A DNA stretch of 15,763 nucleotides, from positions 1 to 15,763 of the IMG/VR virus record IMGVR_UViG_2660238209_000003, one strand, 5' to 3'. Position numbers: made by a program. Shown in pieces: positions 3,001-15,763 of this stretch; the stretch's first letter is position 1; each line of letters starts with the position of its first letter. Source of the DNA: a virus (lineage: Duplodnaviria; Heunggongvirae; Uroviricota; Caudoviricetes).

Positions 3001-6000
3001 CGCACTTTCAGTTTCCGGGACTGAAGGATTTTGTAAAGGATGCGACTGCTCATAACAGGAAGACTTTCAGCCATTTCGTCAACAGAAACTACTTCTCTTC
3101 ATTGGGCGAATATACAGATGGTCGGGTCAGTGGATATGAAGGCAAGGATAATAATCCACAGGGCATTAATATCAGGTATCGCTACGAGATAACGGATGAT
3201 TTTGGCGTTATCACCTCTTTTACATGGACGCGTTCTCTCACTAACTCACAGACATTTATTGATGTGCAGCCAGCCGAACATACCAGGAAGATTAAGAATC
3301 CGGCAGCTTCTGCCAGAACGGATATCAGAGCGAATTACTGGAGTCTGTTAGCGGGGCCTTCATGGCGGGTTAATCAGTACATGAGTTTATATGCGATGGC
3401 AGGGATGGGCGTAGCTAAAGTTACCGCTGACCTGAAAATTAAGGATAATGTTAACAGTACTGGCGGATTTTCTGAAAGCAACAGCACGAAAAAAACTTCC
3501 CTGGCGTGGGCTGCAGGTGCACAGTTTAACCTGAATGAGAGTGTTACACTGGATGTGGCTTACGAAGGTTCCGGCTCTGGTGACTGGCGTACGAGTGGAG
3601 TTACTGCTGGCATTGGCCTGAAATTCTGACCTGTATCCGGTAACCGTTTACTACCCGCTGTGATGGCGGGTTTTTTATTGCCCGTACAGGGCAAAAACCG
3701 TAAATTATGCGCGGGTGCCTTTCGGCTGATGGCTGGAGGGAGAACCTGAAGGCCTGATGTGGAAAGGCCCCGAGTCAACTTTAATGTTAACCCGAGGCCC
3801 TAACACTTCGTACCTTAAGCAAGTAGAAGGTTAGCGCCTCTCTGTAAAAGGAGTCAAGCGCTATGCCGCAAAAAACGATCATAGTCAGCATTTTATGCAT
3901 AACTATTTTGGTGATTGTCTGGATGATACACAACTCACACTGTGAGTTCAGGCTTAACATCATGTGGTCACAATTTGCGGCGTTCTTGCAGTGTAAACAG
4001 TAAGAAACCTCGACGGGGACGAAAGTCCCCGTCAACTGGTTGCTGAGGTTCAGCCGATATGGCACCCGTTTCTGGTGAGAGAATGGACGACAAAATTCTC
4101 CGGTATATGCAGCGTGTTGTGAGAAATTCCCGCAACCCTGAATTTATGAATGAAGTTAAAGACGCCTGCCTTAAAAAGCAGGCGTTTTGCTTTGAGGCAC
4201 CGGATGGTTTTCTGGTGCTGCGTTCTGTGCTCAGTGACGACGGTATCCCTTATGTTCTGGTGTTGCTGGGTGTGTGTACGGGGAGTGCCGGTGTTGAGCG
4301 TTATCTGCCGGAGGTGAAGACATTAACCAGTCTGGCTGGCGGACGCTGGGCTGAATTCCACACGGCAAGGCGGGGATTTATCCGGCTGGGAAAACGTCTG
4401 GGCTTTGAGCGAATGCCGGATGATGAGGATGGCTTCATGGTGTTCAGGATAGCGGTCTGACTGCCACTGTATTCATCATCGTGTGTAAACCAACATTGCA
4501 CTTCACATTCTGACCCTGCCCCGGCAGGGTTTTTTGTTATCTGAGGAGCCATAATGGGCGGAAAAAAAGGCGGTGGTGATACCAAAGTAAAACCAACAGC
4601 AGCGCAAATAGCACAGGAAGAGGTGGCCTGGAAAGGGTGGCAGGATTACAAAAATATTCTCCGTCCGGCAGAAGATAACTTCATGGAAAAGGTCGATGAC
4701 CTTAACAGTGAGCAGCAGTACGACAATATCGCCGGTACAACAAATCTGGGATATCAGAAACAGTTTGGTGAAACGCGAAGGGAGCTTGCGGGTAATCTTG
4801 CTCAGTCCGGCGTTGACCCATCCAGTGGTCGTTTTAATGCGGTAATGGATGCAAATCAAAGCGACCAGGTGACCGGGCAGATTGACACGACCACACGGGG
4901 GCAGGTATCGCAGGCAGATAAATATATTGCCGGGCTACAGGATGTTGCGGCTCTCGGTTCCGGTCAGAAGGCCGATGCGTTACAGAGTTTTAACTCTCTG
5001 GCAGACAGCAGTCTGGCAAAAGCCAAATCAGATGCACAGGCGGCGTTTACAAAACAACAGGGGCGGGCCTCTCTTGTTGGCGCTGGTCTGGGGGCGGTTG
5101 GGGCTTATGCAATGCATAAGGCTGGCGGTAGCGGAAGTGGAGGTTCTAAAACGCCAGACACCGGCGCTAACGCTATTCAGAGTCAGGCTCAGAACTGGAG
5201 ACTGTAATTATGGAGTATGGCAAATACGAAACTCTCGCAAGGGCTGGTTATTCAGGAGCAGACCGCCCACAGGGTGACTGGCAGACGTCAGCAGCGCTGA
5301 CACGCCAACAATACGACGACTGGCGAACCAGATATTTGCCCCGCGTGGCAAGGCTGGCTGACCTTGGTGAGAACAACAGCCTGATGAATGCACAGCTTGC
5401 CCGGGTGGGCGGCCTTGCCACTTCCAGTCTCCGTACAGCGCAGATGGCACAGGATAACCAGATGGCGAGATACGGGGTAAATCGTCCGGATAATCCCAAC
5501 AGTAACACACTGGGTTTGCGTAATGCTCTGGCAATTGCTGGCGCGAAAAATGGTATCCGTGAAGCAGAGCAGGATCGCCAGATGAACATACTGACGGGGG
5601 CTTCTGCACCTGCAAGACAACAACTGAGTGTTGGCGGTCAAATGATGACAGCGTAAGGGGGAAGATATGGGGTACGGCTTACTGGATATTGCGAATCAGT
5701 CACGGCGTGAGGCATTACAGGGAATAAGTGACGCAGACCGACGACGTGAAGAAATTGAGGCTGCGAACAAACAGATGGCGGCGCAACAGAAAGCGCAGAA
5801 CAAGCAGAATATCGGTACGGGCATTGGTACGGGGGCGGCTATTGGCGCATCCGTTGGTGGTCCTGTTGGCGCTGTTGCTGGTGCAGTAATTGGCGGCATT
5901 GCTGGTTCTTTGTTTTAAGGAGTGGTGAATGAGCGGATTTGCACAGGGGTTACTTGCCGGATTCAGCACTGTTGACCAGGCAATGACCCGTCGTAAGGAG

Positions 6001-15000: not shown

Positions 15001-15763
15001 TACCAGGAGAACATGCCGTTTGGTACACCAAAACCTGACAGCCAGCTGGGAAGACGTTCAACGCCAGAAGCGTACAAGGCGTTTGCATCCTGGCTGAATG
15101 CGTTCTCAGGTGGCAGCCAGTACCGTTCAGGCGCGGTGGATATCACACCGGAATCGCTGAAATACTGGGTGGACTATATCTCTGGTGGTACAGGTCGCTT
15201 CATTTCCAAAACCACGGATGCGGCGGTGAAATCGCTGAATGGTATTGATATACCGGAGCAGCAGGTGCCTTTCCTGGGGAAAATTTCGGGAGAGGTGATG
15301 CCGTATGCTGACCAGCAGAAGATGTATGACCGGATGACGGAGGTTGTGCAGTACCACGCAGAGCTGAAGAGCCTGAGGGGTTCCGAAAGAACGGCATTCA
15401 TTGACGAGAACAACGGAAAATTGTCGATGAACGGGCTTATGCAGGATACCCGGAAGAGACTGAAGGATTTGCGTAAACAGCGTGATGCCATTTATGCCGA
15501 CAGTACTCTCAGTCTGGCGCAACAGTCGGCGATGGTGAAATCGGTTGAGCGGGATATGAAGATTGCCGTGGATCGGTTTAACCGCGAGTACAACAAAAAA
15601 GTGGGGGTGGAGTAAGAGAAATTGCCCCGTACTGAAGTGCGGGGCATTCTTAACATAATGTGTACATAAGTGAGTACTGTTGTGATGGATGTTTTGGTAT
15701 TTAATGCATTTAAATCAATGGATTGATATTTATGTTCATTATATCCATTTAACTAAGAGGACA

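Follow-up and report, generated by a model that had tools for sequence, protein, structure and literature searches.

A five-gene block of a short-tailed Stx phage as a candidate set of ejected virion proteins

What do five tightly spaced genes at the end of the late operon contribute to the infection cycle of a Shiga toxin (Stx) phage? We addressed this question for IMG/VR virus record IMGVR_UViG_2660238209_000003, positions 1 to 15,763, a stretch of 15,763 nucleotides (nt) referred to below as the window. An original prediction, made from the sequence alone, had described a five-gene co-directional module and read it either as an ejection system, in loose parallel to the P22 ejection proteins and the T7 internal core proteins, or as a cargo toxin or anti-defence operon. 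All five open reading frames (ORFs) were found where this prediction had placed them:

4554-5207, + strand: gene for a protein of 217 amino acids (aa)
5210-5656, + strand: 148-aa gene
5667-5918, + strand: 83-aa gene
5929-7194, + strand: 421-aa gene
7264-15615, + strand: giant gene, 2783 aa, with the RefSeq start at window position 7264

Positions 4000-15763 are 100% identical to Stx2-converting phage 86 (NC_008464, genus Traversvirus), in whose RefSeq record the five genes are gp31-gp35. At 91-98% identity, the same region matches a total of 186 phage records, almost all from Stx phages. Judged by these matches, the source is a short-tailed 'lambdoid' Stx phage of the group of 933W, Sp5, and phi24B. 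The RefSeq order is tail fibre, nozzle, needle, lom, a hok-like gene, the five genes at the end of the late operon, and then the integrase. Of 5426 complete Escherichia coli genomes, 424 contain the four small genes, with 475 of the 479 places on the chromosome, as would be expected of prophages. Shiga toxin genes spread among E. coli through short-tailed Stx phages, and the five proteins are obvious candidates for the crossing of the cell envelope that follows BamA binding.

Virion content, genetics and gene order of the block

The five proteins have orthologues in Sp5 (ORF76-80, ECs1238-1242), in phi24B (vb_24B_44-48) and, in the same order, in 933W. In gene order, the phi24B proteins are 92, 95, 100, 94, and 91% identical to those of the window; they are labelled 'gp51' (217 aa), 'gp50' (148 aa), 'gp49' (83 aa), 'gp48' (421 aa), and 'gp47' (the giant). 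These are the same genes with no functional difference, and the published genetics and proteomics apply to the window directly.

With moderate confidence, we read the five gene products as proteins of the virion interior in a short-tailed, T=9 Stx phage, from which they would be expelled ahead of the DNA. This reading draws on the presence of the proteins in the virion outside the resolved shell and tail, on the requirement for two of them after packaging, on the conservation of the block, and on the SLT lytic transglycosylase carried by the giant of a relative. The evidence thus supports the ejection-protein set of the original prediction.

A preprint of April 2026 combined cryo-electron microscopy (cryo-EM) and proteomics of phi24B and named Ralstonia phage GP4 as its closest structural relative. 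The T=9 capsid and the tail, consisting of portal, two adaptors, nozzle, fibres, and needle, were fully modelled from proteins other than those of the block. The preparation contained about 36,000 emptied particles. Mass spectrometry of purified virions yielded 10962 peptide-spectrum matches (PSM) for the giant, 1634 for the 421-aa, 523 for the 217-aa, 129 for the 148-aa, and 13 for the 83-aa protein. The corresponding copy estimates of 19-35, 30-55, 22-41, and 36-73 for the first four (none was given for the 83-aa protein) are rough, as they come from spectral intensities with a stated deviation of 1-3 fold. The giant is abundant by mass spectrometry and was seen neither in cryo-EM nor in negative-stain images, and the preprint authors propose that it is an encapsidated, ejected protein. 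They discounted the 83-aa protein as contamination on account of its annotation as 'bacteriocin'. From its sequence, tryptic digestion of this protein would yield only about four peptides of a usable size, not counting the hydrophobic tail of 37 residues. Few spectra would therefore be expected, and their low number is no argument against virion association.

In-frame deletions in Sp5 (Mondal et al.) established that ORF79 (421 aa) and ORF80 (the giant, 2793 aa in Sp5) are essential for plaque formation and lysogeny. The phenotype was seen on the permissive K-12 strain MG1655, the background that produced the phage, and both deletions could be complemented. DNase-resistant DNA was present at wild-type amounts in both mutants, whose heads looked normal. 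Deletion of ORF76 (218 aa) left the phage able to infect, with very poor lysogenisation.

The same mutants raise the question of whether the 421-aa protein and the giant are tail-assembly factors or tail components, which build the tail or hold it on the filled head and are not ejected. Although ORF79 and ORF80 mutants package DNA into normal heads, they were not labelled by an anti-tail-fibre antibody (data not shown in that study), and because of this missing label Mondal et al. classed both genes as tail-formation genes. Their location downstream of the tail genes would agree with such a role. However, the phi24B tail was fully modelled without the 421-aa protein, the giant, or any other product of the block, and the giant, abundant by mass spectrometry, is missing from both kinds of images. 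The negative antibody result may moreover be secondary, e.g., if tails are lost from heads that lack core proteins. We consider a tail-assembly role unlikely.

The reading of the block as a set of internal, ejected proteins also gains from its conservation. The same block is found in Vibrio phages, and part of it in Ralstonia and Burkholderia podoviruses. A tblastn search with the 421-aa protein matched approximately 100 Vibrio phage genomes of roughly 60 kb each, and Vibrio phages carry the block in the same order at 22-42% identity. Downstream of the tail fibre gene, Vibrio phage D70 encodes proteins of 131, 201, 117, 77, 467, and 3066 aa in the order of the window, with an HNH endonuclease gene inserted on the opposite strand. 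These are reciprocal matches, by position, of a 133-aa protein encoded just upstream of the block and of the five block proteins (E values of 1e-3, 1.6e-14, 5e-5, 3e-8, 6e-11, and 0). Counterparts in D70 and the window fall into the same PHROGs (610, 611, 596, 594, and 601); the D70 orthologue of the 421-aa protein (D70_0020) matches phrog_601 with an E value of 8e-37, and that of the 83-aa protein occupies the same position at 42% identity.

In Ralstonia phage Gerry and Burkholderia phage DC1, the order is a nozzle-like gene, a small protein, a small GNAT acetyltransferase, a 277-331-aa 'virion structural protein', a PAPS reductase, a 515-528-aa 'virion structural protein', and a giant of 4219-4650 aa. 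The Ralstonia 277-aa protein (Gerry gp25) matches phrog_611 (E value 1e-8) and starts with MGGKGGGD. Homology between the 421-aa protein and the Ralstonia 515-aa protein is unproven: the two agree only in an N-terminal motif and in position, and a two-sequence profile gave an E value of 0.12 in a set of seven proteins. Mass spectrometry of Burkholderia phage JC1 finds gp64, gp68, and the giant gp69, and neither the acetyltransferase nor the reductase, associated with the virion. By position and size, JC1 gp64, gp68, and gp69 match DC1 gp64, gp66, and the DC1 giant.

The giant protein: conserved ends and a variable middle

None of the five proteins had been thought to show an assignable motif. 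For the giant, this proved wrong. Four Pfam domains score above their gathering thresholds, i.e., LPD5 (147 bits), LPD1 (82), MuF_C (66), and LPD38 (167), and are joined by a CLCA_X-like match and two HExxH motifs. With several unrelated domains of the known repertoire in one very large polypeptide, the giant has the makeup of a large polyvalent protein. Its regions are as follows, with residue numbers referring to the 2783-aa version:

7486-8487, + strand: conserved N-terminal region, aa 75-408 (27% identity to aa 35-372 of the D70 giant, E value 1e-27)
8581-9963, + strand: acidic, Pro/Gln-rich linker of low hydrophobicity, approximately aa 440-900 (100-aa composition windows)
10402-10833, + strand: LPD5 domain, part of the variable middle (PF18799, E value 4.6e-43)
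10777-11544, + strand: putative zincin-like metallopeptidase 1 with LPD1 (CLCA_X, Pfam LPD1, motif)
11650-12225, + strand: conserved zincin-like region 2 (33% identity to D70 aa 1949-2138)
12481-12756, + strand: MuF_C, a predicted RNase domain of the PBECR type, variable (PF18819, E value 3.4e-18)
12811-15612, + strand: conserved 934-aa C-terminal module containing LPD38, mostly helical

The N-terminal region is Gly/Ala-rich and contains a hydrophobic helix at aa 180-208 by hydropathy. It is followed by a segment (approximately aa 440-900) which is not conserved in the D70 giant and whose acidic, Pro/Gln-rich composition with few hydrophobic residues suggests a long linker.

The first zincin-like motif, HEWFHSLD at aa 1274, lies inside a 256-aa NCBIfam CLCA_X match (E value 5.5e-45; 153.8 bits, under the curated cut-off of 260). 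The N-terminal domain of CLCA proteins is a self-cleaving zincin protease. HEWFHSLD has an Asp three residues downstream, as described by Iyer et al. (2017), who argued that peptidase domains process polyvalent proteins and considered LPD5 potentially enzymatic. The second motif, HEIIHH at aa 1541, is of the HExxxH type and aligns with HEILAHH in D70. For MuF-C, the published assignments differ: Iyer et al. (2017) describe a PBECR domain with a predicted RNase fold and not a peptidase, whereas the phi24B preprint calls it a metallopeptidase domain that would digest peptidoglycan. Both HExxH motifs (aa 1274 and 1541) sit outside MuF_C. We found no peptidoglycan hydrolase domain in this giant protein.

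Comparison with the Vibrio D70 giant shows where the protein is conserved. The two share aa 75-408 (27% identity), aa 1463-1654 (33%), and aa 1850-2781 (41%). LPD5, the HEWFH/LPD1 region, and MuF_C, the last of which is absent from D70, are not common to both, and the Vibrio giant has a methyltransferase. In tblastn searches, the C-terminal module was also detected in the giants of Ralstonia and Burkholderia phages (26-28% identity), in a 4203-aa giant of Bacillus phage Dartukuta (33%), and in a 3002-aa giant of a virus recorded as infecting Methanosarcina (28%). In metagenomic relatives, it stands behind differing upstream domains (methyltransferases, PF18760, PF18798, PF18823, and GGDEF). 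The Ralstonia (Gerry) giant combines the module with an SLT lytic transglycosylase at aa 56-148, an Eco57I-type methylase, and a helicase domain. An N-terminal SLT is the hallmark of an entry protein that acts in the periplasm, as in T7 gp16. The picture that emerges from these alignments is that of a constant N- and C-terminal chassis around a swappable effector middle.

The AlphaFold2 model of the C-terminal module (mean predicted local distance difference test score, pLDDT, 84.6; predicted template modelling score, pTM, 0.81) is of high confidence and mostly helical, with one small beta subdomain. A Foldseek search with this model against solved structures gave a best E value of 0.33 with a template modelling (TM) score below 0.1. 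A profile of the module returned nothing meaningful from the PDB, and phmmer searches with the giant and the 421-aa protein against solved structures returned nothing.

Could the block be pure host-takeover or anti-defence cargo, i.e., a polyvalent effector with helpers and without a role in moving DNA across the envelope? Iyer et al. (2017) predict that proteins of this kind are injected against host defences. The giant carries LPD5, LPD1, MuF_C (PBECR, RNase-like), and LPD38, and relatives carry a methyltransferase and helicase ('DarB-like'), PF18760, PF18823, or GGDEF. However, deletion of ORF79 or ORF80 abolishes infection of K-12 MG1655, where a role limited to anti-restriction would be non-essential; that ORF80 is essential on the very host used for growth argues for a role of the giant beyond countering restriction. 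In addition, conservation lies in the N- and C-terminal regions rather than in the effector-like middle, and the Ralstonia relative has an N-terminal SLT. As the only role of the block, cargo therefore appears quite improbable. The ejection and anti-defence readings probably both hold, for different parts of the giant. The anti-defence alternative of the original prediction thus survives for the giant, a polyvalent protein with predicted effector domains in its middle, and is improbable as a sole function. For the variable middle, the best reading is that of cargo as understood by Iyer et al.

Several points weigh against internal proteins that are expelled ahead of the DNA. That the proteins leave the capsid or enter the cell we infer from virion content and genetics, and the copy estimates carry the uncertainty given above. 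The Sp5 orthologues of the 148-aa and 83-aa genes (ORF77 and ORF78) are dispensable. The particles that lacked ORF79 or ORF80 did not bind the anti-tail-fibre antibody, and classical P22 ejection-protein mutants yield normally tailed particles. No sequence or fold similarity to the solved ejection proteins of T7, P22, or N4-like phages was detected. Finally, the C-terminal module occurs in the giants of the Bacillus phage and of the Methanosarcina virus, whose hosts (Methanosarcina as recorded) have no outer membrane. The module is thus not a device specific to the Gram-negative envelope, and its presence in Bacillus phages makes a part in encapsidation, docking, or exit more likely than one in spanning the Gram-negative periplasm.

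Small proteins, a possible entry route, and gene layout

Neither Pfam nor NCBIfam gave a match for the 217-, 148-, and 421-aa proteins, and relaxed Pfam scans remained empty for the small proteins as well as for the N-terminal and linker regions of the giant. The 217-aa protein is Gly/Ala/Gln-rich, has the N-terminus MGGKKGGGD and a Gly/Ala-rich hydrophobic C-terminal segment, and matches phrog_611 and phrog_8003 ('virion structural protein', E value 5e-8). The 148-aa protein matches phrog_596. Its 117-aa orthologue in Vibrio D70 matches phrog_596, phrog_8003, and phrog_611, and a profile built from the 148-aa protein weakly matches the Ralstonia 277-aa virion protein. The 217- and 148-aa proteins appear to be paralogous to each other.

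MGG(K)(K)GGGD or MGGGD forms the N-terminus of the 217-aa protein as well as of its homologues in Vibrio and Ralstonia phages. A conserved Gly exposed after Met removal, together with the GNAT gene nearby in some relatives, raises the idea that this N-terminus might be acylated. Because Ralstonia and Burkholderia relatives carry their small GNAT gene, whose product is similar in size, at the corresponding place, we considered whether the 133-aa protein might act on the MGG N-terminus as a divergent acyltransferase of the GNAT family. This candidate is not supported by sequence: in hhalign, the 133-aa protein and the Ralstonia GNAT reached a probability of 0.2%, and the 133-aa family has no Pfam or PDB match among 55 members. 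Its positional orthologue in D70 (D70_0015, 131 aa) belongs to phrog_610 (E value 4e-14). The 133-aa product was not detected in the phi24B virion proteome and is probably not a virion component.

The 83-aa protein matches phrog_594. The glycine-zipper membrane helix that had been predicted is present at its C-terminus (PF13441, E value 9e-6, under the gathering score), within a hydrophobic segment at residues 49-83 by hydropathy. Its other PHROG matches are weak, with E values of 1e-5 to 1e-2, and lie on the glycine-zipper segment. The Bacteriocin_IIc match (PF10439, E value 8.8e-4) and the RefSeq name 'bacteriocin' would make the gene a bacteriocin or toxin moron with no relation to the genes around it. 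This is hardly credible, as the match stays at 19.7 bits against a class II cut-off of 27.1 on a low-complexity Gly/Ala segment, the gene keeps its position in Vibrio D70 at 42% identity, and its peptides are found in virions.

For the 421-aa protein, a second protein-database search found only near-identical E. coli copies among the matches listed, and the alignment was deepened using the Vibrio orthologue as query. In the AlphaFold2 model, which is of moderate confidence (pLDDT 73), an N-terminal helix of 116 residues is followed by a central alpha/beta domain and by helices at the C-terminus. Foldseek gave a best E value of 0.043 with a TM score of 0.14 and no PDB match.

If the block encodes internal virion proteins, the following route can be envisaged. 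The five proteins would be packed into the head along with the DNA. Upon receptor binding, the needle would leave the nozzle, and the proteins would then be expelled via the portal-tail channel before the genome and help the DNA across the cell envelope. The 83- and 217-aa proteins may insert in membranes through their glycine-zipper and Gly/Ala-rich hydrophobic ends, and the 421-aa protein, with an N-terminal helix of roughly 17 nm, may oligomerise as part of a conduit. Since long low-complexity linkers join its domains, the giant could exit as 'beads on a string', as has been proposed for the virion RNA polymerase (vRNAP) of phage N4. Its N- and C-terminal parts would act as the chassis for encapsidation and ejection. 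The variable middle would be the cargo that works in the cell, made up of LPD5, the CLCA_X-like zincin, which is likely self-cleaving, and the PBECR RNase-like domain.

The gene layout largely agrees with what had been described. Gaps of 2, 10, and 10 nt separate the small genes, and with the RefSeq start at 7264 the gap before the giant gene is 69 nt. Read at its longest, the giant ORF begins at 7225 and encodes 2796 aa; the PHROG profile begins at Met14 of this version. Good Shine-Dalgarno sequences of the GGAG type precede all five starts (in gene order GAGGAG, GGAG, AAGGGGG, AAGGAG, and GGAG), and lom and hok lie upstream, as a Pfam Ail_Lom ORF and a hok-like ORF. The flanking and intergenic features are:

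2895-3629: lom (Pfam Ail_Lom), upstream of the block
3864-4004: hok-like ORF of 46 aa (MPQKTIIVSILCITILVIVW...), between lom and the 133-aa gene
4059-4460, + strand: gene for the 133-aa protein, a conserved upstream neighbour (phrog_610)
4512-4537, + strand: terminator-like hairpin with a T-run, 5' of the 217-aa gene (terminator scan)
7227-7253, + strand: strong terminator-like hairpin (GCCCGG...CCGGGT) followed by seven T, within the 69-nt gap
15624-15650, + strand: GC hairpin (GCCCCG...CGGGGC) with a weak T tail, 3' of the giant gene (sequence reading)

Of the two terminators said to bracket the block, the upstream one (4514-4537) has both hairpin and T-run, called by the scan at 4512-4531; the downstream one (15624-15650) forms a GC hairpin, but its T tail is poor and the scan did not call it. 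The late genes of lambdoid Stx phages are transcribed from pR' under Q antitermination, which passes terminators. Since antitermination reads through them, these terminators do not delimit a separate or private operon. A scan for promoter-like sites on the + strand in 3500-15763 found none.

The hairpin at 7227-7253, called by the scan at 7227-7246, was not part of the original prediction, and the in-frame ATG upstream of the RefSeq start, at 7225, reads through it. Under incomplete antitermination, this hairpin may set the ratio of the giant to the small proteins.

Further upstream, a strong terminator-like hairpin on the - strand (4010-4035) lies just past the hok-like ORF, the arrangement expected for a toxin-antisense pair of the hok/sok type. 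The ORFs in 617-2804 have phi24B counterparts. A 422-aa ORF corresponds to the central tail fibre (needle), and the 93- and 208-aa ORFs correspond to phi24B gp55 and gp54, for which the phi24B preprint suggests a location at the needle tip and a role as BamA-binding proteins.

Comparison with known systems

Much of this feature is known already. The genome is published, the characterisation of the two essential genes dates from 2016 and the definition of the LPD domains from 2017, and ejection of the giant was proposed in April 2026. In the literature on Sp5, 933W, and phi24B, only the giant is discussed as an ejection protein, and the 421-, 217-, and 148-aa proteins appear as 'hypothetical' structural candidates. 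What we did not find stated elsewhere are refinements only: that the five (perhaps six) genes form one conserved block which reaches Vibrio phages, that the giant is split into chassis and cargo, and that its C-terminal module has no solved relative. The split between a conserved chassis and a variable middle offers an experimental handle and suggests a natural protein-delivery scaffold. More tentatively, the four small proteins and the giant's conserved ends might constitute a structurally new genome-delivery apparatus that carries interchangeable effectors in a widespread lineage of T=9 podoviruses. Such a lineage would span phages of Escherichia, Vibrio, Ralstonia, Burkholderia, and even Bacillus, with peptidase, RNase, methyltransferase/helicase, transglycosylase, and GGDEF domains as cargo on a chassis of unknown fold.

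Its Pfam domains place the giant among the large polyvalent proteins. None of the tests applied assigns it to the N4 vRNAP, to DarB, or to the ejection proteins of T7 or P22. The parallel to T7 and P22 drawn in the original prediction therefore stands as an analogy and not as a similarity of sequence or fold. Like T7 gp14/gp15/gp16 and P22 gp7/gp20/gp16, the block encodes what appears to be an internal protein set of a podovirus, some members of which are essential for infectivity and not for packaging, and the size pattern is loosely similar. It differs from T7 in that neither sequence nor fold searches detected a homologue of gp14, gp15, or gp16 and in that the Stx giant has no lytic transglycosylase by Pfam, whereas the Ralstonia Gerry giant has one. 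No homology to P22 gp7, gp20, or gp16 was detected either, the significant PHROG matches being the block's own families, and the missing fibre labelling of the Sp5 mutants is unlike P22.

With the large polyvalent, 'DarB-like' giants of Bcep22-like and Ralstonia phages, some of which are virion-associated by mass spectrometry, the Stx giant shares LPD domains, the 934-aa C-terminal module (26-28% identity), and genomic position. Unlike them, it has no methyltransferase and helicase by Pfam, and its middle consists of LPD5, two zincin motifs, and PBECR. The 'DarB-like' match to phrog_10089 covers only aa 2354-2684, the LPD38 region.

The closest functional parallel is the cassette of N4 and DEV, in which the giant vRNAP gp50 is accompanied by gp51 and gp52. 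The Stx giant differs in having no RNA polymerase family by Pfam and NCBIfam and four small partners rather than two. Searches detected neither sequence similarity nor a solved chain of matching fold, and the tblastn matches of the C-terminal module included no N4-like phage. The analogy lies in the design: in both cases, a T=9 podovirus encodes a multidomain giant of approximately 2800-3500 aa beside small ejection proteins (putative ones in the Stx phage), the giant is invisible in virion reconstructions, low-complexity linkers separate its domains, and one of these carries an HExxH motif, in the Stx giant that of a predicted zincin. Both also pose the same puzzle. With a mass of approximately 305 kDa and a copy number that may reach tens per head, the Stx giant, like the N4 vRNAP, would have to pass through a channel of approximately 35 angstroms.

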